Source: Candidatus Latescibacterota bacterium (GTDB lineage: Bacteria; Latescibacterota; UBA2968; UBA8231). From it: a stretch of 64,000 nt of DNA. Position numbers and translations under genes: made by a program. The stretch's first letter is position 1; each line of letters opens with the position of its first letter. Shown piece after piece: positions 2,148 to 44,912 of this stretch. The stretch spans positions 3,552,001 to 3,616,000 of the forward strand of contig OZ253462.1 in assembly GCA_965261395.1 (NCBI GenBank), written 5' to 3'. Below the pieces are notes generated by a model. The model saw only the letters and a program-made list of their open reading frames with translations. It was not told the DNA's origin and searched no databases.

Positions 2148-2207
2148 GAGAAAGCCTTCTTCCTGTAGGGGGTGACTTAGCTGTGCCTAGACAGTTGAGA
2201 TGGGGTG

Positions 2208-18695: not shown

Positions 18696-21047
18696 TTAGT
18701 AGGCCACGGCGATGGTGCGAAACGCGGTGTCGTCGCCGGCATCGGCACCCAGATTGACGCGCAGGACGTACAGGCCGGGGGCGGCACCCGCTCCATCGGC
18801 GTCGCGGCCATCCCAGGTGAAGAGGCGTTGCGACCCCTCGCTGCCTGGGGTAAGAGCCGCTACTTGGCGTCCGGCCAGATCGAAGATTTTCACCTGCGGC
18901 TCGCGGCCCTCGACTTTGAAGGCGACGAATCGCACCTCTAGCCGGTCGTTGATACCGTCGCCGTTGGGAGTTACGGTCGCAGAGGCCAGTTGCAGATCGC
19001 TGATGAGCTGGCTGTTGCTGGTCAGCTCGGGGAGCATGACGATGTTGGAGCGGCGCTGGGCCGCCTCGACCGCCTGCCACAGGCCCGGTGATTCGCTCGA
19101 TCCTAGGTCGAGGGCGAAGACGGTGGCGTTTTGCAGCAGGCGGGTAGTGAAGCTCACTTGCAACGAGTCGCCCGCGATCACCTGCGGCAGAGCGATGAGC
19201 AGCGAGTCGGCCTGCACGTCCAAGGCGGCCGGAACGACCTGTTCCGCGCCTACCATCACCGAGACGCTCGATAGGTCAACAGGTTCGGGGACGGTGAAAC
19301 GCATTAGGTCGAAACCGCTGTCGAAGCCATCGGTCTCGGGCCAGAGGGTATAGGTGAAGTTCGTGTCTTGGTTGGGAGTGGCCTCGCGGGGGGTGACGCT
19401 GCCGCGCGCGCCTTGAACTAGGGCTTCTTCAAACTCGACGGACACCGAATTGACGGTCGGGGTGACGGTGGGGTCCTCGGTGGAGAGGATCATCTCCAGC
19501 AAGATGAAGCGGCGCGGGCTGGCCGATTTGAAGGTCTCGCCCGAAAACTGGTAGGTATTGCTAAATGCGTTCCAGTCCTCGCCTGTGACCAAGGTCGAGT
19601 CAACAGGCCCTCTGATCACCTTGGGCAAGCTGTTCCACTTCTCCTCGGTGACCAGATCGCCCTTCTTGTCGTAAAAGGTGTACTCCGGGCTGAGCGCATT
19701 GCCCGAGCGAGAGCGCAATTGCAATCGGGTGCCCGGCGGCAGGTCGGCGTCCCAGTGCAGGGCCTTGATGACTTTGGGCCGCCCATCGCCGGCTACCTCG
19801 CCGAGGTTGATAAAGGCCGACTGCAACTCGACTTGGGCCGGATAACCCGGCGAGAATAGTTGTATCTCACCCCACTTGACGACGCCCCATCCCCTGCAGC
19901 TAACTCCGTGCCACAACAGGTAGCGGGCCTTGTGTGGCTCAAACAGGTAGCGCATGTAAAACAGGTTGTCGGCGTTGGGGGCCAGATGGGTGAAGACCTC
20001 TTCGTAATCGACGTTTTCGGGCACTTCGACGAGTGGGGCGGTGCCCGTGGCCGGGGTGCCGTCGGAAAAGAGGAGGGTGTGGCCCGGCCCAGCGCCAGAG
20101 ATGGTGAAACCCAAGGTGCCTTCGTCGGGCTGCATGGAATAGAGGAACATCTCGTCGATAAAGAATGTCGCGCCTAGATCCGCGCGGAACCACGTGCCGC
20201 CTTCGGCCCATCCCGACAGATCACCACGGCAGCCGGTGACGGTATTGTTGGTGTTGAGGTTGGCATCGAAGAGGTTGGGGGTGGAGCCGGTGCCATCGCC
20301 TTCGACGAAATTGCCGCGTAGGCTGGTGCCTATGGCAATGTTGTCGCCGATGCCGATGACCTCGATCTCGGCGAGGGCAGCGTTGGCGTTCTGCTCTTCG
20401 GAGATGATTTGGATGTACTGGATTAACTGGTAGTGGTTGCGTTCTGCGGGCGTTAAATCCAAATCGGGGTCAAACACTAGCGCGCTGTCGCGACCAGCGT
20501 AGCGCAACGGGATGACAATTTCTGATTCGGCGTTGGGGCGCGTGGTGCGGAAGGCCTGGCGGTAGAGGAAGAGGTCTTCGGTGGCCGAGATGCGCACGCC
20601 AGAGGTGGTGAAGACGCGGAATTGGCGGAACGGGCGCGCTCCCTCTTGGTCGGGGAATGTCAGGCGAATCTCGCGGGCTAGGGCCGCACGGCCTAGGTCG
20701 ATGGTGATAAACCAGTCCTCGCGGGCGTCGTCGGGGCTAGGTTGCCAATAGGTCGTTGGATCGCCGTCGATGGCCAGCGGGGCGTCGGCCGGGTTGGAGC
20801 CAGCTTGCCAGAGGCCGCCGGCAACGGCATCGCCTCTAGTGCGGGTCTTGTGGGTGAAGCGATGCGCGTCCTCGATGAGGTTGATGTCCTTGCGGAATTT
20901 GACGAGCGAGAGCTGGCCTTGTTCGCCGACCTGGACCAAGCCGAAGGGCTGTTGCCATTGGGCCCATTTCTCGGCGCTGTCGAAGGAGAGCATTTCAGCC
21001 GCTAGTGGGGCGGCTAGCACGAGGCAGACGATGATTACGCGTTGCAT
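18696..21047 (-). CDS. Array protein, type B: secreted, discoidin/F5-8C-like N-terminal domain, C-terminal TPNGDG/FlgD-Ig domain
   Basis: AGGAGG RBS; MQRVIIV...LAA|E; AIDGDPTTYWQP...WFITIDLGR; VTPNGDGIND...WDGRD...TIAVAY. Confidence 0.85.
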   Translation of the reverse strand: MQRVIIVCLVLAAPLAAEMLSFDSAEKWAQWQQPFGLVQVGEQGQLSLVKFRKDINLIEDAHRFTHKTRTRGDAVAGGLWQAGSNPADAPLAIDGDPTTYWQPSPDDAREDWFITIDLGRAALAREIRLTFPDQEGARPFRQFRVFTTSGVRISATEDLFLYRQAFRTTRPNAESEIVIPLRYAGRDSALVFDPDLDLTPAERNHYQLIQYIQIISEEQNANAALAEIEVIGIGDNIAIGTSLRGNFVEGDGTGSTPNLFDANLNTNNTVTGCRGDLSGWAEGGTWFRADLGATFFIDEMFLYSMQPDEGTLGFTISGAGPGHTLLFSDGTPATGTAPLVEVPENVDYEEVFTHLAPNADNLFYMRYLFEPHKARYLLWHGVSCRGWGVVKWGEIQLFSPGYPAQVELQSAFINLGEVAGDGRPKVIKALHWDADLPPGTRLQLRSRSGNALSPEYTFYDKKGDLVTEEKWNSLPKVIRGPVDSTLVTGEDWNAFSNTYQFSGETFKSASPRRFILLEMILSTEDPTVTPTVNSVSVEFEEALVQGARGSVTPREATPNQDTNFTYTLWPETDGFDSGFDLMRFTVPEPVDLSSVSVMVGAEQVVPAALDVQADSLLIALPQVIAGDSLQVSFTTRLLQNATVFALDLGSSESPGLWQAVEAAQRRSNIVMLPELTSNSQLISDLQLASATVTPNGDGINDRLEVRFVAFKVEGREPQVKIFDLAGRQVAALTPGSEGSQRLFTWDGRDADGAGAAPGLYVLRVNLGADAGDDTAFRTIAVAY

Positions 21048-21057
21048 CGAATCCTCC

Positions 21058-23091
21058 TTAGTAGGCGATACCCAAAGGGCGGTATTGAGGATCGGCAGCA
21101 AATTCCGAGCGCAGATTTAAGGCCGTCAGGTAGAGGCCGGGCGGTAGCCTCTGACCTGTTTCATCGCGGCCGTCCCAGCGCAGGCTCTGCGGGCCCGCGC
21201 TCTGCAAGCCGGCCTCGACGAGGGCCACGCGCCGCCCGTCGAGGCTATAGACCTCGAGGACGACGGGAACGGCTTCGGGCAGGCGGAACAGCGAATAGGC
21301 GATGTGCAGTTCGTCGTTGATGCCGTCGCCGTTGGGCGTAAAGACCGCAGAGGAAAAGGTCAGGTTCTGGATGAAGGCGGTTGTTTGCCCCGTGGTGCCG
21401 AGGACGCGCAGGCTGTTGGTCGAGAGGGCTGCGCCGACATCAGCACCGACTACAGGTTGCGGTAGAACGTCGCGTTCGCTGTCTAGGACCTCGCTCTGGA
21501 AGGTGGTTGCGAATTCAAATATCTCCGTGCCAAAGACAATGCGGATCGGCGGATTGTTGGCGCGGGTGATGCGCTCGGGCAGGTGGATGAGTAGGCCCTC
21601 GGGCTCTTGGGTGATCTCGGCAGGCGCAGTTTCCGTGCGGCTCTCGCCTAGTTGCAGGCTTTTGAGTTCGGTTTGGTGCCCCGTGCGAATGCGCAACAGG
21701 TCGAAGCCGGGTGCGTCAACCGTCTCGAAATCGGCTCGGAGATCATAGACGAATTCTATCGCTTCGCCGAGGGGGACTTGGGTGATCCCGCTGGCGGGCT
21801 GTGGATCGTCTAGGGGAGCCACTTCGCCGCGCACGTTGGCGGCCAACAGCGGGGCGGTTTCGAGCCACAGCGAGTCGAGGCGCACGAAATCGTCGAAGGA
21901 ATCGCTTTCCATGGTGATGAGGAACTGCAAATGGGTGCCGTTGCGCAGGTTGATCGGTTGACCCGATTCGACGAAGGGTGCGGACCAGAAAGTCCAGTTA
22001 TCTGAATCGTAGCCGATGGACGCGCGGATGCCGGGTTTGGGCTGGCGTTCGCTCAGGTCGGATGAGGAGCCGATGCGCACGAAGCGGGTGCGCAGTGCGT
22101 TTTCGTAGTGGTCGCGCGAGACTACGCGCTCCAGCCCGGTATCCATGTACTCGTGATAGACGGCCGGGTCGTCGTCTAGGCCAGTGCGCACCTCGACCTT
22201 GATCTGGGCCGCTGCATCGGGGGTTTCCACTGGGGTCCCATTGACCATGCGGAACTTTGTCGCCTGCCAGAACAGCCGTCCGAAATTCACGGGTTCGCCG
22301 AGGTCGGTTATCTTGGTCTTGTAGATGCTCCGCTGCGGTACTCCTTGGGCAAAGAGTTGGAACTCGCTGATTGAGCCGATGAGGGAGAAGGTGATTTTGC
22401 TGATCTTGGCTTGGGCGTCCTCGTCTAGTATCGAGAGCGTCCGGCGGTAGCGAAAGAAGCGCAGATACTGGCGGTTGAAGTCGAAGCGGATCTGCGGGGT
22501 AAAATTGTTGTCAACATCGGCGATGACGGTGGAGAGTGGGTTGGCATTGCCTTTGAGGACTGGAGGTTCGGGCGCGACTGAGGCGGTCACCTGAAAGGCG
22601 GGGACGAAGTCCGTTTCCAGGGGGGTCCCATCGGAACGAAAGCCCTCACTGGGAGGAATAAAGCCAAAGGTCACCGCTGGCACCGCCACGGCTAAATCCA
22701 TGGTGAAGGTTTCTTTTTCGACGAGGTCGGCCATTGGGGGATTATAGGTGAGAGGGTCGCCGTCAATGAGCCAGGAGCCGTTTTCTGATGGATCGGGCAC
22801 GCCGTTGTTCCACTTCCACATGCGCGGCGTCTCGCCGTCTAGGTAGTCGAAGATGCGGTCGCTGGGATCGCGCCAGAAGGCCCAGTTGTCGATATGGGAA
22901 AAAACCGTCTCGTCCGGCGTGAAGTACGTGGGCTGGATGGCACCGGGGGTGGTTGCGAAATCGACGAAGAGGCGGGTGGTGTCGTTTTCGCTCCAGGCTA
23001 GGCCATTGCCGCCTAGCTGCCAGTGGGCGATCTGGGCGGTGGCGCTTTGCGCTAAAATTAGGATGAACAAGACGATAGTGGCACGGCGCAT
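21058..23091 (-). CDS. Array protein, type A (duplicate copy)
   Basis: MRRATIV...SATA|QIAHWQLGG; DLGEPVNFGRLFW; FTPNGDGIND...RPLGIAY. Confidence 0.88.
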   Translation of the reverse strand: MRRATIVLFILILAQSATAQIAHWQLGGNGLAWSENDTTRLFVDFATTPGAIQPTYFTPDETVFSHIDNWAFWRDPSDRIFDYLDGETPRMWKWNNGVPDPSENGSWLIDGDPLTYNPPMADLVEKETFTMDLAVAVPAVTFGFIPPSEGFRSDGTPLETDFVPAFQVTASVAPEPPVLKGNANPLSTVIADVDNNFTPQIRFDFNRQYLRFFRYRRTLSILDEDAQAKISKITFSLIGSISEFQLFAQGVPQRSIYKTKITDLGEPVNFGRLFWQATKFRMVNGTPVETPDAAAQIKVEVRTGLDDDPAVYHEYMDTGLERVVSRDHYENALRTRFVRIGSSSDLSERQPKPGIRASIGYDSDNWTFWSAPFVESGQPINLRNGTHLQFLITMESDSFDDFVRLDSLWLETAPLLAANVRGEVAPLDDPQPASGITQVPLGEAIEFVYDLRADFETVDAPGFDLLRIRTGHQTELKSLQLGESRTETAPAEITQEPEGLLIHLPERITRANNPPIRIVFGTEIFEFATTFQSEVLDSERDVLPQPVVGADVGAALSTNSLRVLGTTGQTTAFIQNLTFSSAVFTPNGDGINDELHIAYSLFRLPEAVPVVLEVYSLDGRRVALVEAGLQSAGPQSLRWDGRDETGQRLPPGLYLTALNLRSEFAADPQYRPLGIAY

Positions 23092-23176
23092 GAAGACCCT
23101 CCTTTGGCAAAGCGAAAATTAGAGACATGTGCCAACAATATAATGCGTGGTAAACAATTATCCTATCTGAGGAAGA

Positions 23177-23599
23177 TCAGTACGCCACGGCGATGGTGCG
23201 CAGTACTGTATCATCGCCAGCGTCAGCCCCTAGGTCGATGCGGCAGAGGTAGGTGCCGGGTGGCATGAGGTCGCCTTGGGCAGCGCTTCCGTTCCAGGTG
23301 AAAACGTGAGCCAAGCCGTCGATGGCCAGCGGGGCGTCGGCCTCGTTGGAGCCAGCTTGCCAGAGACCTCCGGCGACGGCATCGCCCTTGGTGCGGGTCT
23401 CGTGGACGAAGAAGTGTGCGTCTTCGACGAGGTTGATATCCTTGCGGAATTTGACGAGCGAGAGTTGGCCCTGTTCGCCGACCTAGACCAAGCCGAAGGG
23501 CTGTTGCCATTGGGCCCATTCCTCGCCGCTGTCAAAGGAGAGCATGTCAGCAGCGAGTGGGACGGCTAGCACGAGGCAGACGATGATTACGCGTTGCAT
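23177..23599 (-). pseudogene. Chimeric type-B junction gene: N-terminus of the 21047 gene fused in frame to the C-terminus of the 28065 gene, with a nonsense codon
   Basis: MQRVIIV...FGLV*VGEQ...APLAIDG|LAHVFTWNGSAAQGDL...TIAVAY; TAG at 23483-23485 (codon 39). Confidence 0.9.
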
Positions 23600-23609
23600 C
23601 GAATCCTCC

Positions 23610-25643
23610 TTAGTAGGCGATACCCAAAGGGCGGTATTGAGGATCGGCAGCAAATTCCGAGCGCAGATTTAAGGCCGTCAGGTAGAGGCCGGGCGGTAGC
23701 CACTGACCTGTTTCATCGCGGCCGTCCCAGCGCAGGCTCTGCGGGCCTGCGCTCTGCAAGCCGGCCTCGACGAGGGCCACGCGCCGACCATCGAGGCTAT
23801 AGACCTCGAGGACGACGGGAACGGCTTCGGGCAGGCGGAACAGCGAATAGGCGATGTGCAGTTCGTCGTTGATGCCGTCGCCGTTGGGCGTAAAGACCGC
23901 AGAGGAAAAGGTCAGGTTCTGGATGAAGGCGGTTGTTTGCCCCGTGGTGCCAAGGACGCGCAGGCTGTTGGTCGAGAGGGCTGCGCCGACATCAGCACCG
24001 ACTACAGGTTGCGGTAGAACGTCGCGTTCGCTGTCTAGGACCTCGCTCTGGAAGGTGGTTGCGAATTCAAATATCTCCGTGCCAAAGACAATGCGGATCG
24101 GCGGATTGTTGGCGCGGGTGATGCGCTCGGGCAGGTGGATGAGTAGGCCCTCGGGCTCTTGGGTGATCTCGGCAGGCGCAGTTTCCGTGCGGCTCTCGCC
24201 TAGTTGCAGGCTTTTGAGTTCGGTTTGGTGCCCCGTGCGAATGCGCAACAGGTCGAAGCCGGGTGCGTCAACCGTCTCGAAATCGGCTTGGAGATCATAG
24301 ACGAATTCTATCGCTTCGCCGAGGGGGACTTGGGTGATCCCGCTGGCGGGCTGCGGATCGTCTAGGGGAGCCACTTCGCCGCGCACGTTGGCGGCCAACA
24401 GCGGGGCGGTTTCGAGCCACAGCGAATCGAGGCGCACGAAGTCGTCGAAGGAGTCGCTTTCCATGGTGATGAGGAACTGCAAATAGGTGCCGTTGCGCAG
24501 GCTGATAGGTTGGCCTGATTCGACGAAGGGTGCGGACCAGAAGGTCCAGTTGTCTGAATCGTAGCCGATGGACGCGCGGACGCCCGGCTTGGGCTGGCGT
24601 TCGCTCAGGTCGGATGCGGCGGTGATACGCACGAAGCGAGTGCGCAGGGCGTTTTCATAGTGGTCGCGCGAAACTACGCGCTCTAGGCCGGTGTCCATGT
24701 ACTCGTGATAGACGGCCGGGTCGTCGTCTAGGCCGGTGCGCACCTCGATCTTAACTTGGGCCGCCGCGTCGGGAGTTTCCACTGGAGTCCCATTGACCAT
24801 GCGGAATTTTGTCGCCTGCCAGAACAGCCGTCCGAAATTTACGGGTTCGCCGAGGTCGGTTATCTTGGTCTTGTAAATGGCCTGCTGAGGCACACCTTGG
24901 GAGAAGAGCTGAAACTCGCTGATCGAGCCGATGAGAGCAAAGGCGACGTTGCCGCTCTTGGCTTGGGCGTCCTCATCCAGTAGCGAGAGCGTCCGGCGGT
25001 AGCGGAAGAAGCGCAGGTACTGGCGGTTGAAGTCGATGCGGACCTGCGGGGTAAAATTGTTGTCAACATCGGCGATGACGGTGGAGAGTGGATTGACATT
25101 GCCTTCAAGCACCGGGGGTTCGGGTGCGACCGAGGCGGTCACCTGAAAGGCGGGAACGAAGTCCGTTTCCAGTGGGGTGCCGTCGGAACGAAAGCCCTCG
25201 CTGGGCGGAATAAAGCCAAAGGCCACCGCTGGCACCGACACGGCCAAATCCATGGTGAAGGTTTCCTTTTCAATGCGGTCGGCTTTGGGTGGGTTGTAGG
25301 TGGTAGGGTCGCCATCGATGAGCCAGGAGCCGTTTTCCGAAGGGTCGGGTATGCCGTGGTTCCACTTCCACATGCGCGGGGTCTCGCCGTCGAGGTAGTC
25401 GAAAATCCGGTCGCTGGGGTCGCGCCAGAAGGCCCAGTTGTCGATATGGGAAAAAACCGTCTCGTCCGGCGTGAAGTACGTAGGCTGGATGGCACCGGGG
25501 GTGGTTGCGAAATCGACGAAGAGGCGGGTGGTGTCGTTTTCGCTCCAGGCTAGGCCACTGCCGCCTAGCTGCCAGTGGGCGATCTGGGCGGTGGCGCTTT
25601 GCGCTAAACTTAGGATGAACAAGACGATAGTGGCGCGGCGCAT
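23610..25643 (-). CDS. Array protein, type A (duplicate copy)
   Basis: 677 aa, colinear with 21058..23091. Confidence 0.88.
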   Translation of the reverse strand: MRRATIVLFILSLAQSATAQIAHWQLGGSGLAWSENDTTRLFVDFATTPGAIQPTYFTPDETVFSHIDNWAFWRDPSDRIFDYLDGETPRMWKWNHGIPDPSENGSWLIDGDPTTYNPPKADRIEKETFTMDLAVSVPAVAFGFIPPSEGFRSDGTPLETDFVPAFQVTASVAPEPPVLEGNVNPLSTVIADVDNNFTPQVRIDFNRQYLRFFRYRRTLSLLDEDAQAKSGNVAFALIGSISEFQLFSQGVPQQAIYKTKITDLGEPVNFGRLFWQATKFRMVNGTPVETPDAAAQVKIEVRTGLDDDPAVYHEYMDTGLERVVSRDHYENALRTRFVRITAASDLSERQPKPGVRASIGYDSDNWTFWSAPFVESGQPISLRNGTYLQFLITMESDSFDDFVRLDSLWLETAPLLAANVRGEVAPLDDPQPASGITQVPLGEAIEFVYDLQADFETVDAPGFDLLRIRTGHQTELKSLQLGESRTETAPAEITQEPEGLLIHLPERITRANNPPIRIVFGTEIFEFATTFQSEVLDSERDVLPQPVVGADVGAALSTNSLRVLGTTGQTTAFIQNLTFSSAVFTPNGDGINDELHIAYSLFRLPEAVPVVLEVYSLDGRRVALVEAGLQSAGPQSLRWDGRDETGQWLPPGLYLTALNLRSEFAADPQYRPLGIAY

Positions 25644-25728
25644 GAAGGCTTTCCTTTGGCAAAGCGAAAATTAGAGACATGTGCCAATAATATAATATTT
25701 GATAGACAATTATCCTATCTGCGGAAAA

Positions 25729-28065
25729 TCAGTACGCCACAGCGATGGCGTGCAGTGCTGTATCGTCGCCGGCGTCAGCTCCTAGGTCAATGCGGCAGAG
25801 GTAGGTGCCGGGTGGCATGAGGTCGCCTTGGGCAGCGCTTCCGTTCCAGGTGAAAACATAGGCTACGCCGTCGATGGCTGGGGCCGCTAGTTCGGCGACC
25901 GGCCTTCCGGCAAGGTCGAAAATGCGCACTTGGGGCGTGCGTTGCTCGACCTTGAAGGCGACGAAGCGGATAACTACTTCGTCGTTGATGCCGTCGCCGT
26001 TGGGAGTGAGTACTGGCGAGGAAATCGAGAGGTCGTCAATGAGCTGGGTAGTGCCGGTCAGAGCGGGGAGCATGACGATATTGGCGCGGCGCGTCAGCGG
26101 CTCGACCGATTGCCACAGGTCTGGATGGCCGCTCGAACCTAAGTCGAGGCCGAAGAGCGTGGCGTTGTGTAGTACGCGGGTGGTGAAGCTGACTTGGACG
26201 GAGTCGGTGGTGATGGCACGGGGCAGGTCGATTTGCAGGGCGTCGGCGCGGATGTCTATGGAAGATGGCTCGATGTGGGTGCCGCCCGCGCGGACTTCGA
26301 CATCGGACGCTTCAGCGGGGAGGGCAAAGCGCAGCAAGTCGAAGCCCGCGTGGGCGGCATCGGCCGCGGACAACAGGGTGTAGGTGAAGCGAGTGTCCTC
26401 GTTGGGCAGGGCGACTCTGGGGGCGATTTGGCCCTGGGCGCCCTGTAACAGCGCGTCCTTGTACTCAAGCGACAGCGCGTCAATTGCGGGTGCCGCCTGT
26501 GGATCGTCGGTCGAGAGGATCATCTCCAACTGCACGAAGCGACGCGGGCTTTGCGACTTGAATGCCTCGCCGGAAAAGGTGTACGCCTTGCTCCACGCAT
26601 CCCAATCCTCGCTGACCACGACGGTGGTGTCGATCCTTCCCCGCAGCACTTTGGGCAGGCTGAGCCATTTCTCTTCAGTGACCGGCTCGCCGATCTTGTC
26701 GTGGAAGGCATAGACCTCGCCCTGGGTGTTGCCCGAGCGCGAGTGCACTTGCAGGCGAGTGCCGGGCGGAATGTCGGCGTCCCAAGAGAGGTGGCTGATG
26801 ACTTTGGCACGCCCATCGCCAGCGGCCGTGCCGAGATCGATAAAGTCCGAATGCATGACGACCTCGGCGGGGTGGCCCGGCGAAAAGAGCATCAGCTCGG
26901 TCCAGCGCGAACCCCATTCCTGGGGGGTGTGGGCGTGCCAGAACAGGTAGCGGACCCTGCGCGGTTGGAACAGATAGCGCAGATAGCGCATGGAGCCGGG
27001 GTCGGGTTGGTCGATGAGGGTAGCAAAGTCAAAGGATTCGGGGATGGGGAGCTGGGAGCTGATGACGCGGGTGCCGTCCGAGTGGAGAAAGTTAAAGCCT
27101 CTCGGAGCGCTGGCCACGCTCCCGACCGTGCCCTCGCGCGGCCTGAGCGCGTAGAGGAAAAGCTCGTCGAGCCAGAATACGGCCCCTAAGTCGATGAAGA
27201 ACCAGGTGCCCTGATCTTCCCAACTGCGGACGCGGCCCTCAAAGCCTACGGGCAGGATGGAGCTGGCGGTGTTCATGTCGCCGTCGAGGATATTTTCGTT
27301 AGAGCGGGCGGTAAGCCCGTTGATGATGCCGCCGCGCTGGTCGTTGCCCAAGCTGACGTTGTCGCCGACGGCGATGACTTCGACCTCGGCTAAGGCACCT
27401 TCAGGCTCTAGGTCTTCGACTGTGAAGTTGATGTACTGGATGAGGCGGTACTGGTTGAACTCTTCCAGATCGACGTTGAGACTAGGGTCGAGGACCTGGG
27501 CGCTGTCCTGGAGGTCGAAGGCGAGGGGGATTGAGATGGTGGTATCCCTGTTAGGTTGAGTCGTCAGATAAACCGGCCGAAAAATAAAGAGGTCGCCGAG
27601 GGCGTCGGAAGTGATGCCGGTGGCGGTGAAGACGGTGAACTGGCGGAAGGGGCGGGCGCCTTCTTGGTCGGGAAAGTGCAGGCGGATCTCTTTGGCCAGC
27701 ACGGCGCGACCGAGGTCAATCTGCACGAACCAGTCGCCGAGCACGTCGTCGGCCGAGGCCTGCCAGAAGGTCGCGCGGTTGCCGTCCATGACCCGTCTGG
27801 CTGCGGCTGGGTTGCTGCCGGCTTCCCAGATCCCGCCCGGCACGTTGGCACCGCGCGAGCGGGTGTGGTGGGTAAAGTCGGGCGCGTCGGCTACGGCGTT
27901 GATATCCTTGCGGAATTTGACCAGCCGCAACTGACCGCGGTCGCCAAACTCGATCAGGCCATAGGGCTTCTTCCAGGTTGACCAGCTAGCGGCGCTGTCG
28001 AAGCGGAATTCTGCGGCGGCGAGCGCGGTTGCCGAACAGAGGACCCAAAGCAGTAGAGGACGCAT
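25729..28065 (-). CDS. Array protein, type B
   Basis: Signal peptide; FDSAASW, KFRKDIN, MDGNRATFW...IDLGRAV; LTPNGDGIND...AIAVAY. Confidence 0.88.
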   Translation of the reverse strand: MRPLLLWVLCSATALAAAEFRFDSAASWSTWKKPYGLIEFGDRGQLRLVKFRKDINAVADAPDFTHHTRSRGANVPGGIWEAGSNPAAARRVMDGNRATFWQASADDVLGDWFVQIDLGRAVLAKEIRLHFPDQEGARPFRQFTVFTATGITSDALGDLFIFRPVYLTTQPNRDTTISIPLAFDLQDSAQVLDPSLNVDLEEFNQYRLIQYINFTVEDLEPEGALAEVEVIAVGDNVSLGNDQRGGIINGLTARSNENILDGDMNTASSILPVGFEGRVRSWEDQGTWFFIDLGAVFWLDELFLYALRPREGTVGSVASAPRGFNFLHSDGTRVISSQLPIPESFDFATLIDQPDPGSMRYLRYLFQPRRVRYLFWHAHTPQEWGSRWTELMLFSPGHPAEVVMHSDFIDLGTAAGDGRAKVISHLSWDADIPPGTRLQVHSRSGNTQGEVYAFHDKIGEPVTEEKWLSLPKVLRGRIDTTVVVSEDWDAWSKAYTFSGEAFKSQSPRRFVQLEMILSTDDPQAAPAIDALSLEYKDALLQGAQGQIAPRVALPNEDTRFTYTLLSAADAAHAGFDLLRFALPAEASDVEVRAGGTHIEPSSIDIRADALQIDLPRAITTDSVQVSFTTRVLHNATLFGLDLGSSGHPDLWQSVEPLTRRANIVMLPALTGTTQLIDDLSISSPVLTPNGDGINDEVVIRFVAFKVEQRTPQVRIFDLAGRPVAELAAPAIDGVAYVFTWNGSAAQGDLMPPGTYLCRIDLGADAGDDTALHAIAVAY

Positions 28066-28071
28066 TGGCCG

Positions 28072-30081
28072 TTAATAGGCAAGGCCCAAGGCCAATAGCT
28101 GTTTGGCTTGGACGAACTGGGTTTGCAGGGCGATGGAGAGTAGGTAGAGGCCCGGCGGGAGGAGCTGGCCGGTCTCGTCGCGGCCGTCCCAGGTGATCGC
28201 GCGCGGGCCGGAGTCTTGCAGCCCTTGGTCGAGGCGGGCGATGCGGCGACCGTCCAAGGCGTACACTTCCAGTGCCACGGGCACGGGACCGGGGAGGTGG
28301 AAGAGCGAATAACGCATCTGGAGCTGGTCGTGGATGCCGTCGCCATTGGGGGTCAGCACCGGGGTGGACAAAGCGAGCGCTTGGATGAAATCGAGTGTCT
28401 CGTCGCCCGCGCCCAGCACCCGCAGGCTGTTGGTGGAGACCGCCTCGCTGGCGTCGCCGGCTAGGATTGGTTGGGGGAGCGATTCGCCGTCGGCGACAAA
28501 GATCTCGCCGGCAAAGGTGGAGGCGAATTCAAAGACTTCGGCGGCGAAGACCACGCGGATCGGCGCGTTGTTGGTGCCGGTGACGCGCTGGGGCAATTGG
28601 ATCACCAAACCGTCGTCTTCCTCTACTGCGACTGGATTGACCGAGACGAGTGGGGTGCCCATTTCGAGGCGGCGAAAGGCGGTGCGATTGCCGGTGTGGA
28701 TCCTAAGCGCGTCGAAGCCGGGAGCGGTGCTACCGTCGAATACGGCCCGCACCTGATAGACGAATTCGGTCTGTTGGCCCAAGGCGACTTCGGTAAAGCC
28801 GCGCTTGGGCTGCGGGTCGTCGCGTCGAGCCACTTCGGCGAATACCTCAGCGGCCAATAGCGGCGCGGTCTCGATCCACAGCGAGTCAATCCGCATCCAA
28901 GCGTCGAAGTCGCGGCTTTCTAAGGAGAGTTCCACTTGGAGATGCGATCCGCTCCTGAGCCGGATTGGCTGGCCCGATTCGGTAAAGGGCACCGACCAGA
29001 AGGACCAGTTGGCAGAATCGTAGCCGATGGAGGCGCGGATCCCGGGCCGTGGGTCGCGGTTGAGTTGGGCGGTGAGTGTCTCGTATTGCTCGCGCGAGAC
29101 CTCCTTCTCTCGGCCGATGTTGGTGTATTCGTGGTAGGTCGCCGGGCTGTCATCGCGGCCGACGCGGACTTTGGCCTTGAGCCAGACTGGGGCGTCGGGA
29201 TCTGCGACGACCACGCCATCGACCAAGCGCAGCGGCGTGCCTGCCCAGTGCAGGCGGCCAAAATTCACCACTCGGCCCAGATCGACGACTTGGCTGAGGT
29301 ACACTACGCGCTGCGGGATGCCTTGGCCGAAGATCTCGAATCCCCCGATTGAGCCTTTGAGCGCGATGGCTTGGTTGCCTTGGCCTCCGCAGTCGCGGCA
29401 GATGTTGAGCGCTTCCTCGTCGGCCAGCGACAATTGGCGGCGCCAGCGGAAGAAGCGGACGTACTGGCGGGGGATTTCTATCTGAACGGAGGGTTCGAAG
29501 TTGGCACCGACATTGGCGATGGTTTTTTCAAAGAGATCGTTGCCACCCCACTGAACGGCCGGTTCGGTGTCCGTGCCGATCGAGACATCGAAAGCCGGGA
29601 CCGCGTCGAAGGGCAGCGGTGTGCCGTCAGAGCGGAAGCCCTGCGAGGGAGTGAAGAAGCCGAAGCGCACGGCGGGGATCGGCACGGCGGTGTCGAAGGA
29701 GAAGAAAGTGGCTCCGACCGATTCGGACCGGGGGGCGTTGTAAGTCGTGGAATCGCGATCAACTAGGAAAACGCCGCTTTGGGTCGGATCGCCGCCGGCA
29801 CCGCCCCAGCGGTTCCAGAAGCGGGGTTTCTGGCCATCGACATAGCCGAGGTTGTACAAGGGGGGTTCGCGCCAGAACTCCCAGTTTTCCAGCAAGTGAA
29901 TGACGTTTTGATCTGGCTGCAAGTAGAGCGGCTGGATCGCACCGTCGACAAAATCGACAAGGACGTGGAGGGAGTCGCGCTGATCCCACGCCATGCCACT
30001 GCCGCCCAGTTGCCACTTTGCTACTTGAGCGTGGCTGGGTGCGACGGCGAGGATTAGCATCAAAGGCCAAGCACTGCGCAT
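28072..30081 (-). CDS. Array protein, type A
   Basis: MRSAW...PSHA|QVAKWQLGG; GFRSDGTPL; DLGRVVNFGRLHW; LTPNGDGIHD...LGLAY. Confidence 0.85.
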   Translation of the reverse strand: MRSAWPLMLILAVAPSHAQVAKWQLGGSGMAWDQRDSLHVLVDFVDGAIQPLYLQPDQNVIHLLENWEFWREPPLYNLGYVDGQKPRFWNRWGGAGGDPTQSGVFLVDRDSTTYNAPRSESVGATFFSFDTAVPIPAVRFGFFTPSQGFRSDGTPLPFDAVPAFDVSIGTDTEPAVQWGGNDLFEKTIANVGANFEPSVQIEIPRQYVRFFRWRRQLSLADEEALNICRDCGGQGNQAIALKGSIGGFEIFGQGIPQRVVYLSQVVDLGRVVNFGRLHWAGTPLRLVDGVVVADPDAPVWLKAKVRVGRDDSPATYHEYTNIGREKEVSREQYETLTAQLNRDPRPGIRASIGYDSANWSFWSVPFTESGQPIRLRSGSHLQVELSLESRDFDAWMRIDSLWIETAPLLAAEVFAEVARRDDPQPKRGFTEVALGQQTEFVYQVRAVFDGSTAPGFDALRIHTGNRTAFRRLEMGTPLVSVNPVAVEEDDGLVIQLPQRVTGTNNAPIRVVFAAEVFEFASTFAGEIFVADGESLPQPILAGDASEAVSTNSLRVLGAGDETLDFIQALALSTPVLTPNGDGIHDQLQMRYSLFHLPGPVPVALEVYALDGRRIARLDQGLQDSGPRAITWDGRDETGQLLPPGLYLLSIALQTQFVQAKQLLALGLAY

Positions 30082-30179
30082 CGGGCACCGCATCTCCGCT
30101 GAGGTAACATGCTGCTGGGAAGATAATGCAAAAAGAGCCATGCGCGGAATTAAATAATCACCGCTATGGCTAGGAACTC

Positions 30180-32528
30180 CTAATAGGCGACGGCGATGGT
30201 GCGCAGCATCGTATCGTCACCGGCGTCGGCACCGAGATCGACGCGCAGGACGTAGATGCCGGGGGCCGCGTTCGCTCCGTTGGCGTCGCGGCCATCCCAA
30301 GTGAAGAGGCGGTGCAATCCCTCGGTACTTGGGGCGAGGACGGCTACTTGGTGCCCGGCGAGGTCGAAGACTTCCACTTGCGGCTCGCGGCCTTCGGCTT
30401 TAAGGACGACGAACCGCACCTCTAGCCGGTCGTTGATGCCGTCGCCGTTGGGCGTGAGTGTCGGCGAGGAGACGAAGAAGTCGCTGATGAGCTGGCTGCT
30501 ACTGGTTAGTTCGGGCAGCATGACGATATTGGCACGGCGTGCGGCCGGTTCGACCGACTGCCAACGGCCCGGATGCGTGCTGGAGCCTAAGTCCAACGCG
30601 AAGAGGGTGGCGTTGCGCACCAAGTGGGTGGTAAAGTGGACGCGGACCGAATCGTCTCGGATCGGATCGGGTAAGGCGATGAGCAGGGAGTCTCCGCGCA
30701 GGGAGGTCGATGCCGGCGAGACGGTTTCTGTGCCCTTCTCCACGCTCACGCTGTGCAGATTGAGCGGACCCGGCAGGTCGAAGCGCATCAGGTCGAAGCC
30801 GACGTCATCAGGGCTGGCGCTGGGCAGTAGGGTATAAGTGAAGGAAGTCTCCTCATTGGGGAGGGCACTGCGCGGCTCGACGCGGCCACGGGCACTCTGG
30901 AGCAGCGCGTCGTCGAATTCGATCGACAGCGCGTTGACTGCGGGCGCGACTTCGGGGCGGTCGGTAGCGAGAATCAGCTCCAGTTGCGCGAAGCGACGCG
31001 GACTTTGCGACTTAAAGGTTTCGCCGGAAAATTGGTACACATTGCTCCAAGCGTCCCAGTCCTCGCCGACGACCAGCAAGGTATCGATAGGACCGCGCAG
31101 CACCTTGGGCGAGCTATTCCATTTTTCTTCGGTGATTGCTTCGCCGATCTTATTGTGAAACGTATAGACCGGTGCCAGCGCGTTACCCGAACGAGAGCGC
31201 AGTTGCATCCTAGCCCCTATGGGCAGATCGGCGTCCCAGTGCAGGGCCTTGATGACTTTGGGCCGCCCGTCGCCGGTTTCCTCACCGAGGTCAATAAAGC
31301 CGGAGCGCAGCGAGACTTGGGCGGGATAGCCCGGCGAGAACAGCATAAATTCGCCCCATTTGGATTCGAGCCAATCGCGGTCGGTCAGGCCGTGCCAGAA
31401 CATATAGCGCATCCTGCGCGGCCTGAATTTGTAGCGTATGCGGTAGAGGCCATCCGCCTTGGGGTTGACGTGCGTGAGCAGTTCGCCGTAGTCGAGCGGC
31501 GCAGGTACGGGTAGGGAAGTGCCCACGCTGAGCGAGCCGTCCGAGACTAGGATGCTGTGACCTGGGCCAGCCGAGCCGCGGTGATAGCCCGCAGTGCCCT
31601 CAAAAGGTTGGAGCACGTAGAGGAACAGTTCATCGACGAAGAACACAGCGCCTAGATCGACGTAAAACCAAGTGCCTGCTTTCTCCCAGCCTTGGTCGCC
31701 GCGGCCGGAGGTGATGAGATTGGTGGTGTTGATATCGGCGTCGAAGAGGTTGCCCGGGACGGCGGCTACCGTGCCGTTGAGGAAGGTGCCGCGCCCGGCG
31801 GTGCCGATGCTGATATTGTCGCCCACAGTGAGCACTTCGACTTCGCCCAGCGCCGCATCTAGGCTTTGTTCTTCGACGATGATACTGATGTACTGAATCA
31901 CTTGGTAGTGGTTTTCAAAGGTGCGATCAATGGCCATAGCTGGATCGACCGTCAGGAGGGTGTCGGCGGCCGGATACTCGAGGGGAATGGTCAGGGAAGT
32001 GGCATGGTTGGGCAGGGTGGTGCGATAGACCGGCTCGTATTTGAAGACGTCGGCAGTGGCTTGGATGCGCGCCCCGGTGGTGCCATAGACGGTGAACTGT
32101 CGCAGCGGGCGGGCACCCTCTTGGTCGGGGAAGGTCAGGCGAATGTGGCGGGCGAGGACGGCGCGCCCCAAGTCGATATCGAGGAACCAGTTTTTGAGCT
32201 GGTCGGCCGAGTCGGGCTGCCAGAAGGTCGCGGGATCGCCGTCGATGGCGTTGGCAGCGGTGGTGCGCCCGCTGCCGGCCTGCCAGATGCCGCCTGCTAC
32301 TTCGCCTCGTTGCTGGGTGGAATGGGTGAAAAGGTGGGCATCGCGGATGGCGTCCACTTCCTTGCGGTATTTGGTCAGGCGCAGCACGCCCTCCGCATCC
32401 ACCTGTACTACCCCCGCCGGCATGGTCCAGCTTTGCCATTTTTCTGCGCTGTCGAAGCTCAGTAGTTCGGCCCAGCCGGGAGTGGCTAGCAAAGCGAGCC
32501 AAGCTGTAAAGGCAACGAGGAAGCGCAT
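30180..32528 (-). CDS. Array protein, type B
   Basis: MRFLV...GWA|ELLSFDS; AIDGDPATFWQP; GDGRPKVIKALHWDAD; LTPNGDGIND...TIAVAY. Confidence 0.87.
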   Translation of the reverse strand: MRFLVAFTAWLALLATPGWAELLSFDSAEKWQSWTMPAGVVQVDAEGVLRLTKYRKEVDAIRDAHLFTHSTQQRGEVAGGIWQAGSGRTTAANAIDGDPATFWQPDSADQLKNWFLDIDLGRAVLARHIRLTFPDQEGARPLRQFTVYGTTGARIQATADVFKYEPVYRTTLPNHATSLTIPLEYPAADTLLTVDPAMAIDRTFENHYQVIQYISIIVEEQSLDAALGEVEVLTVGDNISIGTAGRGTFLNGTVAAVPGNLFDADINTTNLITSGRGDQGWEKAGTWFYVDLGAVFFVDELFLYVLQPFEGTAGYHRGSAGPGHSILVSDGSLSVGTSLPVPAPLDYGELLTHVNPKADGLYRIRYKFRPRRMRYMFWHGLTDRDWLESKWGEFMLFSPGYPAQVSLRSGFIDLGEETGDGRPKVIKALHWDADLPIGARMQLRSRSGNALAPVYTFHNKIGEAITEEKWNSSPKVLRGPIDTLLVVGEDWDAWSNVYQFSGETFKSQSPRRFAQLELILATDRPEVAPAVNALSIEFDDALLQSARGRVEPRSALPNEETSFTYTLLPSASPDDVGFDLMRFDLPGPLNLHSVSVEKGTETVSPASTSLRGDSLLIALPDPIRDDSVRVHFTTHLVRNATLFALDLGSSTHPGRWQSVEPAARRANIVMLPELTSSSQLISDFFVSSPTLTPNGDGINDRLEVRFVVLKAEGREPQVEVFDLAGHQVAVLAPSTEGLHRLFTWDGRDANGANAAPGIYVLRVDLGADAGDDTMLRTIAVAY

Positions 32529-32529
32529 T

Positions 32530-34542
32530 TTAGTAGGCAATGCCTAGCGGGCGCAGCAGGCGTTCGCTGATCCCGTCGGATTGCAGTGCCACTTCGAGTA
32601 GGTAGAGGCCGGGCGGCAGGAGTTGTCCTTGGGCGTTGCGTCCGTCCCAGCTAAGGCGCTGCGGTCCGGCAGTCTGTGGCGCAAACGACAGGCGGGCGAC
32701 CTGCCGACCATCGAGAGCATACGCCCGCAGTTCGACGGGTACGCCGGCGGGTAGGCGGAAGAGGGAATAAGAGACCTGCAGCAGGTCATTTACACGGTCG
32801 CCGTTGGGGGTCAAAATCGGCGTTGAAAAGCGCAGGTTCTGGATTGCGTTGACGCGACCGCCCTGCGCACTCAGCACGCGCAAGCTATTGGTCGATACGG
32901 CGGCTGTGGCATCGCCGCCCTGGATGGGTTGGGGTAGGCTTTCGGCCGCGGTGTCGATGGCCTCGCCTTCAAAGGTCGTGGCGAAGACGAAGACGTCGGC
33001 GGTGAACTCGATGCGGATGGGCGCGTTGTTGGCGGCGTGGACCCGCTCGGGCAGCTCGATGAAGAACTGGTCGTCGTTGATCTCGACTCGGCGCGGCTCG
33101 ACGGGCACCAGAGGATCGCCCATCGCCAGCGTCTGCAAGTGGACTCGGCTGCCGGTGCGGATGCGCAGCGCGTCGAAGCCTCGCTCTGAGGCGGCGAAGT
33201 CGGCGCGAATATCGTAGCTGAAGTTGGTCGCCTGCCCTAGGGCCACTTCGGTCAAGCCGCGTGCCTGCGGGTCGTCGAGGCGGGCAACTTCGCCGACGAT
33301 CTGGCGAGCTAGGAGCGGTGCCTGTTCGACCCACAGCGAATCCAAGCGCGTAAAGGCGTCGAAATCCGCGCTGTCGAGGGTGATTTTGAACTGGATATGG
33401 GAGCCGCTGTGCAGATTGAGCGACTGGCCAGGCACGGTGAAGGCGGGCGACCAGAAGGTCCAGTTGTCCTCGTCATAGGCCACGGACGCGCGGACCCCAG
33501 GCCGATCGCTGGCGACGTAGCCGTAGCCTTGCGACTCCTTGAGTTCGTACTCGTAGCGCTGGCGCGAGACTTCCACCTCGCGGCCCTTGTCGTCGAATTC
33601 GCGGTAGATATTGGGGTCTTGGTCGTTACCGGTGCGCACCTCGACGCGCAGCCCGACAGCAGCTTCGGGCGCTGGGACCAAGGCACCGTCCTCCATCCGC
33701 ATGGAGGTCGCCGACCAGAACAGCCGGCCGAAGTTCACTTCCGCGCCCAGATCGATAATTTTGGATAGATATAGCACGCGCTGTGGGACCCCCCGGGCAT
33801 AGAGTTCAAAGTCGCCGATGGTCCCCGGCCGCGCTTGGCCGGATAGCGAGTTTTCTTGGAGGACAAAGGTCGGATCGAGTACAGACTCGTTGCGACGCCA
33901 GCGGATGAAGCGGACATATTGGCGGGGTAGGTCGATTTGTACGGTGGGGGACAGGTTTTCGGCGACGTCGGCGATGAGCGGGCCGATGCGCGCGTAGCCG
34001 TTGTGCCCGTGCCATGCGGGATCGGGTTCGGTGGCGACGCTCACTTCAAAGGCGGGCACAGCATCGTCGGCTAGTGGGGTACCGTTTGAGCGGAAGCCGC
34101 GCGGGGGTGTGAAAAAGCCGAAGCGGATGGCCGGGACGGGCACGGCTACATCGAAGGTAAACCAGTCGAAGCTCCCGAGGTCCGAGGACGGGGGGTTGTA
34201 GGTGGTGCTGTCGCCATCGACTAGGTACGTGGCGTTGTGTACGGTTCGCGAGTCGCCCAAGCCCAGCTTCCAGGCACGGGGTCGCTGGCCATCGACATAG
34301 CCGATTTCGCGGGGAAATTTCCAGGGGGACCAGTTGTCGAGGTGCGAAAAGACGGTCTGGGCCGAGGTCAGGTAGATGGGCTGGATGACCCCGGGGACGG
34401 AATCTAAGTCGATGAAGATGCGGATCGAATCGCTCGCCGACCATGCAAGGCCGCCGCTGCCGCCAAGCTGCCAAGTGCTTATTTGCGCCGACAGAACTCC
34501 GGGCAGCAGAAGTAAGGAGAGGATGGCAACGATGCGGCGCAT
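32530..34542 (-). CDS. Array protein, type A
   Basis: MRRIV...VLSA|QISTWQLGG; GFRSNGTPL; DLGAEVNFGRLFW; LTPNGDRVND...RPLGIAY. Confidence 0.87.
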   Translation of the reverse strand: MRRIVAILSLLLLPGVLSAQISTWQLGGSGGLAWSASDSIRIFIDLDSVPGVIQPIYLTSAQTVFSHLDNWSPWKFPREIGYVDGQRPRAWKLGLGDSRTVHNATYLVDGDSTTYNPPSSDLGSFDWFTFDVAVPVPAIRFGFFTPPRGFRSNGTPLADDAVPAFEVSVATEPDPAWHGHNGYARIGPLIADVAENLSPTVQIDLPRQYVRFIRWRRNESVLDPTFVLQENSLSGQARPGTIGDFELYARGVPQRVLYLSKIIDLGAEVNFGRLFWSATSMRMEDGALVPAPEAAVGLRVEVRTGNDQDPNIYREFDDKGREVEVSRQRYEYELKESQGYGYVASDRPGVRASVAYDEDNWTFWSPAFTVPGQSLNLHSGSHIQFKITLDSADFDAFTRLDSLWVEQAPLLARQIVGEVARLDDPQARGLTEVALGQATNFSYDIRADFAASERGFDALRIRTGSRVHLQTLAMGDPLVPVEPRRVEINDDQFFIELPERVHAANNAPIRIEFTADVFVFATTFEGEAIDTAAESLPQPIQGGDATAAVSTNSLRVLSAQGGRVNAIQNLRFSTPILTPNGDRVNDLLQVSYSLFRLPAGVPVELRAYALDGRQVARLSFAPQTAGPQRLSWDGRNAQGQLLPPGLYLLEVALQSDGISERLLRPLGIAY

Positions 34543-36022: not shown

Positions 36023-36385
36023 ATGACTTGGAATGCTGAATATACGAACGAGTTTGGCGAATGGTGGGATGGGCTTGCAGAGAGCGTGCAGGACGATATT
36101 ACCGCCACGGTTGAGTTGCTCTTGGAGCACGGCCCTCACCTGCTGCATCCCTATTCATCGGGTATCCAGGGTTCACGCCACGGACATATGCGCGAGCTTA
36201 GGGTACAAAGCAGCGGTAGGCCAATTCGCGTCTTCTATGCTTTTGATCCGAGACGGGTAGCGATCCTATTGATCGGAGGCGACAAGACGGGTAATGATCG
36301 GTTTTACGAGCAGTACGTACCGGTAGCTGACAAACTTTACGATGAGCATCTTGAAACCTTGCAAAAGGAAGGATTGATCCCATGA
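36023..36385 (+). CDS. RelE/ParE-family (HigB/Gp49-like) toxin
   Basis: GP.L..PYS..I.GSRH..MRELRVQ..GRPIRVFYAFDPRR.AILLIGGDK. Confidence 0.9.
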   Translation: MTWNAEYTNEFGEWWDGLAESVQDDITATVELLLEHGPHLLHPYSSGIQGSRHGHMRELRVQSSGRPIRVFYAFDPRRVAILLIGGDKTGNDRFYEQYVPVADKLYDEHLETLQKEGLIP

Positions 36386-36726
36386 GCGGGCACCGTCCCT
36401 TTAGTGAGTTGACCAAGGACTTCACGCCGGAGCGCCGTCAGCGCATTGAGGCGAAAAAGGCTGAATTGCGAGCCGCTATGCCGCTGCACGAGCTACGGCA
36501 GGCACAGGTTATGACCCAGAAGGCACTTGGCGAGACTTTGGCGGTGAACCAACCCGCCATCGCCAAGATGGAACGGCGGACAGATATGTACGTCTCGACT
36601 CTTCGCTCCTACATCGAAGCACTGGGCGGACGGCTGAAGATCGTCGCCGAGTTCCCGGAAGGCGAAGTCGCAATAACCAACTTCTCGGACGCGGGCGATG
36701 GTGTAGAGCTTCAGGATAGGGAATAA
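36382..36726 (+). CDS. XRE-family HTH antitoxin (HigA-like)
   Basis: LHELRQA..MTQ..L...L.VNQPAIAKMERRTDMYVSTLRSYIEALGG; ATGA overlap with the toxin. Confidence 0.9.
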   Translation: MSGHRPFSELTKDFTPERRQRIEAKKAELRAAMPLHELRQAQVMTQKALGETLAVNQPAIAKMERRTDMYVSTLRSYIEALGGRLKIVAEFPEGEVAITNFSDAGDGVELQDRE

Positions 36727-39382: not shown

Positions 39383-39841
39383 GTGAAGAATGGAAAATTG
39401 ATGCTTCTGCTCGCCTGTTGTCTTTTGGCCCCAGCCGCGCCGCTGTTGGCGCACTGCGAGATTCCCTGCGGCGTTTATGGAGACGATGCGCGTTTTGCCG
39501 CGATTGAGGAAGATCTGACGACCATTGAGAAGTCCATGACGCAGATCGCGGCGTTGGCGGGCCAGAGCGACGCCCAAAGCGCGAACCAGCTAGCGAGGTG
39601 GGTGGCGAACAAGGAAGAGCACGCCAACAAAATCCAGCACGTCGTCACCCAGTATTTTATGACGCAGCGGCTCAAGGAGGTGGAAGAAGGAGATGAAGCG
39701 ATGGCCGCATATACCGATAAGCTGGTGCTTTTGCACAAGATGCTCCGGGGGGCCATGAAGTGCAAGCAGACGGTGGATGTCGGGCAAGTGGAGAAGATGC
39801 GGGCCTTGTTGCACGAGTTTAAGCACGCCTATCAAAACTGA
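39383..39841 (+). CDS. sodN: Nickel superoxide dismutase with signal peptide
   Basis: Ni-hook HCEIPCGVY directly after ...APLLA; KEEHA, YFMTQR, MKCKQ. Confidence 0.92.
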   Translation: MKNGKLMLLLACCLLAPAAPLLAHCEIPCGVYGDDARFAAIEEDLTTIEKSMTQIAALAGQSDAQSANQLARWVANKEEHANKIQHVVTQYFMTQRLKEVEEGDEAMAAYTDKLVLLHKMLRGAMKCKQTVDVGQVEKMRALLHEFKHAYQN

Positions 39842-39865: not shown

Positions 39866-39907
39866 AAGCCCCGTCTCCCCTTTGTGGAGATGGGGCTTTT
39901 TTGTTTT
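39866..39907 (+). terminator. Intrinsic terminator between convergent sodN and LTD gene
   Basis: AAGCCCCGTCTCC-loop-GGAGATGGGGCTT followed by a T-tract; degenerate copies at about 41900-41932 and 44872-44907. Confidence 0.75.
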
Positions 39908-41792: not shown

Positions 41793-41933
41793 GACAGTTA
41801 TTCCCCTTTCCAAAGAACCACTACCGCTATTTAAGACTGTCCACGTTGTCCTACAGATCCCGCCTGTCGGATCAACAGACCCGGCGAAGTGAGCCTACTT
41901 CGTCTCCCTTTGTGGAGATGGGGCTTTTTTGTT

Positions 41934-44807: not shown

Positions 44808-44912
44808 GATCTATCAAGCCAAAGCGACGGGGCAGGTTCTTAGAAGCCGTTATCAACTGATAATATATAGAAACCCCGTCTCTCGGCATGGAGATGGAGT
44901 TTTTTTCTTGCT

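Follow-up and report, generated by a model that had tools for sequence, protein, structure and literature searches.

Type IX secretion system (T9SS) cargo with a type-B C-terminal domain, as in SprB–SprF and PG1035–PorP, carries a Sec signal and a C-terminal β-sandwich tail with a TPNGDG.ND motif; in Bacteroidota such cargo anchors on PorP-like barrels (PMC9143113), and orphan type-B cargo of Flavobacterium is established to share a shuttle encoded elsewhere (PMC12618676). A second relevant group, the tail hubs and nozzles of podophages, is built around a divided domain: the insertion domain of Pa223 gp59 comprises residues 2–46 and 403–512 around a propeller (bioRxiv 10.1101/2025.06.11.659172), and the platform domain of the SU10 nozzle is split likewise (PMC9509320). 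Here we describe an array of genes for two kinds of secreted protein, A and B, in a 64-kb stretch of a Candidatus Latescibacterota genome (contig OZ253462.1, positions 3,552,001 to 3,616,000; hereafter the window) that is part of a genome assembled as a single 6.55-Mb contig. By sequence, A and B are paralogous proteins encoded as a conserved two-gene unit. This unit is a real, conserved and undescribed module, on present evidence a variant of T9SS-type surface cargo and not a new kind of system; new here are the loss of a large neighbor gene from the A/B clade, the platform fold and a duplication scar.

Like T9SS type-B cargo, A and B have a Sec signal and a C-terminal β-sandwich tail with the same motif, in a genome that encodes SprA and paralogous cargo, some of it far from a shuttle gene. 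Unlike that cargo, they end in a CHU_C/FlgD hybrid tail with a terminal Tyr (141 of the 145 family members long and strong enough for classification) that scores below the TIGR04131 cut-off, form a fixed two-gene pair, belong to a phylum outside Bacteroidota and have no match to PorP/SprF (PF11751) anywhere in the genome, with control genomes equally blank. Their predicted heads resemble CBM32 and F5/8 type C modules (Clostridium perfringens GH89 CBM32-6, 4a42, and NanJ CBM32, 2v72) in fold (Z 13–16), in a conserved DG(D/N)..T and in variable apical loops, and the tandem discoidin pair of B recalls the tandem F-lectin 3cqo and neuropilin b1b2; unlike CBM32 proteins, no catalytic domain was found in A or B, the heads sit inside another domain and the canonical galactose residues are not evident. 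As in the podophage proteins (Pa223 gp59, 9nwi; SU10, 7z47), a β-sandwich is assembled from N- and C-terminal pieces flanking an insert (Z 10–12, 117–126 residues aligned), but the insert is a discoidin head and not a propeller, the proteins are secreted with an export tail, identity is 12–14%, and the genes lie outside any phage or prophage tail module, among metabolic neighbors. SusC/SusD, the polysaccharide-utilization pair, is a conserved, repeatedly duplicated two-gene unit that gives a repertoire of specificities; in contrast, the A/B partners are both soluble paralogues with export tails, with no transporter or lipoprotein in the pair.

The array lies on the minus strand and comprises seven intact open reading frames (ORFs), namely three A–B pairs and an extra A with a duplication scar (Table 1; starts were set at the ATG preceding each signal peptide). 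A hydrophobic leader ending in A-x-A or similar, judged by eye, is found in all seven and in 23 of the 24 ORFs that make up the A (13) and B (11) clades delimited in this genome from the tree. The original prediction, made from the letters of the window, had described tightly spaced pairs in this order, and the gaps re-measured from the ORFs agree with it, at 1, 6, 10 and 10 nt from A to B and 98, 85 and 85 nt between pairs; the motifs that it quoted are likewise present, with small deviations (VMDGNRATFWQ in B2, TPNGDRVND in A1 and TPNGDGIHD in A2). A copies share ≈50% identity apart from the A3/A4 pair, and B copies 52–61%. The array is flanked by an enolase-superfamily gene on one side and by amidohydrolase and dihydrodipicolinate synthase (DHDPS)-family genes on the other. 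The same enolase-superfamily gene precedes the array in 14 of 19 related loci, where the array begins with A1–B1 or A2–B2. Promoter and terminator scans of the array stayed at chance level, and two RNA runs yielded scattered pieces, mostly 90–97% alike, that do not demonstrate its transcription.

Table 1. Features of the A/B array and of a possible shuttle gene, in window positions
Feature	Positions	Strand	Description
A1	32530-34542	minus	670 aa; signal peptide, one discoidin head within a split platform, immunoglobulin-like (Ig) domain, T9SS-type tail with terminal Tyr; domains assigned from homology with the A2 model
B1	30180-32528	minus	782 aa; plan as A1 but two discoidin heads; F5/8 type C 29.4 bits, over cut-off
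A2	28072-30081	minus	669 aa; modeled, predicted local distance difference test score (pLDDT) 88.3
A2 predicted domains (mature numbering)			discoidin ~36-236; platform 1-35 + 237-392; Ig 393-541; tail 545-651
B2	25729-28065	minus	778 aa; modeled, pLDDT 91.5
B2 predicted domains (mature numbering)			discoidins ~35-216 and 227-378; platform 1-34 + 380-520; Ig 521-652; tail 655-760
A3	23610-25643	minus	677 aa; intact gene sharing 95% identity with A4 and lacking an intact B right behind it
Duplication scar ("pseudo B")	23177-23599	minus	B4 5' part + B2 3' end, joined at 23315-23326; in-frame stop 23483-23485
A4	21058-23091	minus	677 aa; second copy of the duplicated A
B4	18696-21047	minus	783 aa
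Tandem repeat	20763-23326 and 23315-25878		unit 2,565 bp, 93.5% identical
PorV/PorQ-family protein	50638-51564	minus	possible T9SS shuttle; NF033709 144.5 bits, cut-off 90; link to A/B not shown

Pairing of A with B exceeds chance in this genome: an A-clade gene followed by a B-clade gene accounts for 10 of the 54 same-strand adjacent family pairs, whereas 20,000 shuffles of the labels gave 0.37 on average and never more than 4. Of the 13 A genes, ten are immediately followed by a full-length B frame (in one case with an early stop), one by the scar and two by no B; seen from the other gene, 10 of 11 B follow an A. In five near-complete relatives (rows above ≈450 bits, with one fragment dropped and one split match merged), a B comes immediately after 25 of 33 A; of the 34 B, 25 stand behind an A, and the number rises to 32 when those behind another B are counted too. 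In two other genera, A precedes B at 16 of 17 loci, the 17th being a 2-kb contig, these loci having been picked from the top-listed rows of a phylum-wide search with the A body; among the 41 of 75 metagenome loci examined, five of the seven with an A have the B behind it. The partner is mostly the same as well: 49 of 51 pairs from other genomes, a set biased to A2 relatives, fit a cognate pair of this genome by best hit, and both order and partner are kept at ≈65–74% identity across genera. The genomes so compared are kin and not independent of one another. The A-B adjacency proposed at the outset is conserved in related genomes, and the co-divergence of A and B is partial (Mantel r 0.70, p 0.0005 over 10 pairs, with two splits shared at 89–100% support), with one conflicting node. 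"Strictly alternating," as the array had been called, is not true of the genome as a whole, in which A-A and A-B-B runs and lone A genes occur. A short-then-long order recurs in sister clades (subfamilies c2-B0 nine times and c10/c7-c6 three times), and family adjacencies in the genome are short-long in 28 cases and long-short in 9. In subfamilies c3 and c4, head-to-head pairs occur alongside tandem ones (L044:6662-11029, L045:4391-11030).

A and B had been described as two separate types, but they are paralogues, sharing 24–29% identity over the C-terminal 320–480 residues, and a profile comparison with hhalign aligns A 79–651 to B 232–760 over 508 columns at a probability of 100. Profiles of A and B without their tails match 146 ORFs of the genome, or 151 after iteration, which amounts to 5.3% of the genome. 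Across the phylum, 75 of 153 genomes contain the A body, including 64 of the 68 from its own family, and with this query several other Latescibacterota families yield none; the A head and platform are matched by 272 cluster representatives, and relatives are titled mostly Candidatus Latescibacterota. Domain-library, PDB sequence and structure searches return no characterized family for the A/B body, in keeping with the earlier statement that no such system had been characterized: the PDB sequence searches matched the tail and, weakly, discoidin; whole-chain Foldseek of the A chain against PDB and BFVD gave a template-modeling score of at most 0.19; and clusters retrieved from atlas searches are unnamed or named for F5/8 and FlgD only. 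A2 and B2 are under purifying selection in every domain (ratio of nonsynonymous to synonymous rates, dN/dS, 0.11–0.25 over 13 A2 and 12 B2 orthologues), and "variable" in the sense of fast-changing is not supported; a hypervariable or antigenic-variation system was rejected on the same ratios. A prophage remnant was likewise rejected, given the metabolic neighbors and the absence of a PHROG match for any of 12 family proteins.

In the closest sister clades, cassettes combine two short chains and one long chain with a large gene of ≈930 codons; clades c5, A_deep and B2deep all lie in such cassettes. The ≈930-aa proteins are putative barrels, judged from an alternating hydrophobic pattern, and have no Pfam or NCBIfam match; 46 were recovered in the genome, against 145 members of the A/B superfamily. 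Although 12% of the genome lies within 10 kb of a ≈930-aa gene, only 2 of 24 A/B-clade genes do, versus 92 of 121 other family members; counted by locus, the figures are 1 of 10 and 49 of 67 (Fisher p 0.0002). The nearest ≈930-aa gene is 18.7–32.5 kb from the A/B genes of the window, and none was seen in 20 A/B stretches fetched from relatives, many of them cut by contig ends, or in the seven metagenome loci. The A/B clade has thus lost an ancestral ≈930-aa neighbor, and because its sister clades remain in cassettes, the A/B dyad is a derived, stand-alone form of the same Tyr-tailed superfamily, a two-gene unit with no large gene nearby. A divergent superfamily member occupies window positions 1–2186, beside three ≈930-aa partner genes just outside the window (G000:C1:3543176-3551999, G000 denoting this genome).

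Confident AlphaFold models of A2 and B2 (Table 1) predict for each chain a split platform β-sandwich that bears a single discoidin head in A and a pair of them in B, followed by an Ig domain and then a tail of T9SS type. The discoidin/CBM32 fold expected for B is borne out by a structural match to 4a42 (B 37–215; Z 15.9, root-mean-square deviation (rmsd) 1.8, 125 aligned), and A also carries such a head, unseen by the original prediction (A 40–235; Z 13.1, rmsd 2.3, 122 aligned to 4a42); both B heads align to 3cqo (Z 13.6). The A head and the second B head are homologous and are mostly the furthest diverged parts between paralogues, with identities of 35–68% and 33–72%, compared with 60–78% for the B platform. 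The predicted heads likely bind glycans. That they bind proteins, peptides or lipids instead, or that the proteins are released as soluble binders or decoys, we regard as having a low probability. Protein-binding discoidin and DOC domains do score within ≈1–4 Z of CBM32, the A/B clade has no anchor gene beside it, and in the first B head 96 of 100 rows show Gln, Arg or Lys, and not His, right behind the invariant Trp83, at what we take to be the His position of galactose-binding CBM32 sites. Set against this, the top fold matches are bacterial CBM32 for both chains, and the enolase-superfamily, amidohydrolase and DHDPS-family neighbors lend a sugar link weak support. PMC5291390 names His, Arg, Asn and aromatic residues for galactose binding and states that CBM32 ligands are not predictable from sequence.

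The discoidin heads interrupt a split domain, which combines the N-terminal ≈35 residues with a further stretch of 140–155 residues behind the heads. In A this domain matches virus tail chains with the same split, the best being 9nwi_Y (Z 12.2, rmsd 2.1, 122 aligned; A model 1–390 against chain 2–509), followed by 8jov_A (GP4, Z 11.2), 9h4p_BD (HFTV1, Z 10.7) and 7z47_G (Z 10.2); the B platform matches a virus tail chain at Z 11.8. By length and range, we equate 9nwi_Y with the Pa223 hub gp59 and 7z47_G with the SU10 nozzle. Within the A/B proteins, the platform is the domain conserved most (0.73 and 0.77), and both phage proteins are hexamers, with SU10 contacts made via platform and propeller, according to the sources cited above. 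These features would suit platforms that assemble as in podophage nozzles, A and B alternating in a ring (e.g., A3B3) or lattice; we nevertheless judge such an assembly very unlikely, since the channel-lining propeller of the phage proteins is replaced by discoidin heads, none of 12 family proteins matches a PHROG, and the platform also occurs in an ordinary secreted protein (G000 1126935-1128980) and may be a generic carrier. A broader version, in which the nozzle-type fold would act as a surface hub, A and B alternating in a T9SS-exported ring or lattice with three heads per pair, and swaps or additions of A next to a single B, of the kind that the duplication in this array made, would retune a combinatorial repertoire of ≈ten pairs within the 145-gene family, is rather unlikely too. 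The ordinary secreted protein just mentioned has 681 residues (L143:2935-4980) and the same split platform (profile E 4e-16), and its insert looks by eye like a β-propeller, which is the layout of the phage tail hub.

With regard to export, the Ig domain resembles YcnI (Z 11.2 and 9.7), and the A tail resembles the C-terminal domain of PorU (Z 11.8, rmsd 2.5, 99 aligned). Tails of the window genes exceed the CHU_C cut-off in three of seven cases and that of FlgD_ig in five of seven. The genome encodes SprA (TIGR04189 over cut-off, 2164-aa frame), a C25 peptidase and ≈9 PorV/PorQ-family genes, none of them within 15 kb of an A/B-clade gene; GldM (TIGR03517) has no match in the genome, with the control blank too, and GldK, L and N were not searched. 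The T9SS-like route that had been proposed is supported by the PorU-like tail and by these genes, and its type-B signal falls short of the profile cut-off. Elsewhere in the genome, FlgD-tailed proteins mostly have Arg or Lys as their last residue, and because the family tails end in Tyr, the genome seems to have two classes of tail signal. The PorV/PorQ gene of the window lies upstream of three FlgD-tailed proteins (39906-49472; 635, 957 and 1519 aa) with 3, 5 and 8 matched lamin-tail domain repeats, two of which were seen to end in Arg.

We tentatively propose, at slightly less than an even chance, that A and B pass out through SprA, are retained by a carrier whose gene lies elsewhere and together function as a two-subunit receptor bearing three heads. 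Each chain would leave by Sec and pass through SprA, and would be held at the surface by one of the 46 putative ≈930-aa barrels or of the ≈9 PorV-family proteins; the carrier is placed elsewhere because the A/B clade descends from cassettes beside a ≈930-aa gene but lost that gene. Together, A and B would present three predicted discoidin heads per pair, with specificity set mainly by the A head and the second B head, and the pair, duplicated and deleted as a unit, would yield a stable repertoire of ≈ten specificities in which the partnership is preferred and not obligate. Signal peptides, gaps of 1–10 nt, common ancestry, conserved order and partner and purifying selection are the elements that the sequences support directly; contact between the chains, their export, their location and their ligand are inferred. 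For a heterodimer or a lattice, the grounds are gene linkage and fold likeness only. A complex prediction of A2 1–392 with B2 1–521, leaving out Ig domains and tails, scored 0.00 twice, with controls that did not fold, and is no evidence either way; the inter-chain alignment comprised 61 A-B pairs, with an effective depth of only 25–35.

Several observations weigh against such a receptor. An operon duplicated as a unit would yield linkage and co-divergence without contact between the products, and the trees conflict, A grouping p4 with q404 at 100 and B grouping p1 with p4 at 76. Contrary to what had been claimed, the partnership is not obligate: a B-less A is conserved in this genome and in all five near-complete relatives, A-B-B runs exist, and no B follows two of the seven metagenome A genes or the A of one related locus (L021). 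The intact A3 has no B of its own (dN/dS 0.14 against A4), and such an extra A is kept at five of 19 related loci, whereas one B of the genome (L035:6257-8600, equivalent to G000:C1:3879256-3881600) has an early in-frame stop beside an intact A. On the side of export and binding, the type-B signal TIGR04131 exceeded its cut-off of 35 bits in none of four tails scanned (best 18.6 and 17.5); the discoidin fold is common to non-lectins, including IFT25 (Z 15.6), DOC domains and neuropilin; and some CBM32 modules are non-functional, according to PMC5291390. An unlikely though by no means negligible alternative is that A and B are co-transcribed but separate surface lectins, which share a promoter and a carrier, a barrel or shuttle on which both tails would dock, and were duplicated as a unit with no need for contact. 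Each chain indeed has its own signal peptide and full tail, the lone and extra A genes, the A-B-B arrangements and the conflicting node fit this alternative, and for every ≈930-aa gene the ancestral cassettes contain three paralogues (genome-wide, 145 against 46). Against separate lectins, order and partner are kept across genera, and after the loss of the ≈930-aa neighbor, and relatives gain and lose whole pairs. The stop in the B gene is an in-frame TGA at a conserved Trp near the start, and one A in a relative genome (G014) also carries one TGA.

The "pseudo B" of the array had been taken for a decayed fourth B; it is instead the junction of a head-to-tail duplication (Table 1), in which a 12-bp word common to both genes links the 5' end of B4 with the 3' end of B2. 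In an independent study, a contig (run X5) bridges the junction over 23276-23515 with zero differences, and an assembly artefact was rejected on this ground and on the occurrence of the junction in five related loci. Across the 19 related loci, A3 is directly followed by B4 in nine, the extra A comes with a shorter remnant in five, one (L021) has no B in the next 1.5 kb and four end too early. Six "second" A copies form one clade with 100% support and the first copies are scattered among single-copy genomes, a tree that fits a single origin of the duplication and subsequent exchange among lineages. Of the 34 residues at which A3 and A4 differ, 22 fall in the head, within residues 96–255. More generally, the array gains and loses whole pairs between relatives. 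The relative locus L012:1539-5909 begins with B1, followed by an A 60% like A1 and then A2-B2, so that a B lacking its A is followed by two consecutive A. In run X7, a contig connects flanks 18694/34614 with the entire array absent, and contigs of runs X19 and X20 join B1 to B2 sequence (26773/31228), as if recombination had deleted pairs in a relative; both kinds of contig could come from other organisms. Many paralogous contigs share, almost unchanged, the 31 bases at 23865-23895 that code for the TPNGDG motif.

In the literature searched, at the level of listings, we found no description of the A/B module (supplementary annotation tables could list the genes) and no paper linking Latescibacter with T9SS or discoidin; the main text of PMC12993501, on sponge Latescibacterota, lacks the words "secretion," "FlgD," "discoidin" and "lectin." The unannotated family makes up ≈5% of this genome, most of one Latescibacterota family having tens to more than 100 candidate genes in each genome, and from this share it likely carries much of the contact of an uncultured lineage with its surroundings. 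The A/B unit should be the easiest experimental entry because it is the simplest form, with two soluble chains and no large partner gene. Beyond this, it suggests that a T9SS-like route with a signal class ending in Tyr exists outside Bacteroidota, and it connects the surface proteins of cells with a domain of phage nozzles.

Elsewhere in the window, a 941-aa ORF at 9176-12001 has a weak Omp85 match (22.2 bits, cut-off 24) and a C terminus that looks out of frame. Two short genes at 36023-36726 resemble by eye a toxin–antitoxin pair, presumably of RelE/HigB type. Finally, an ORF at 39383-39841 has a leader and an HCEIPCG motif, which we take to be that of a nickel superoxide dismutase.

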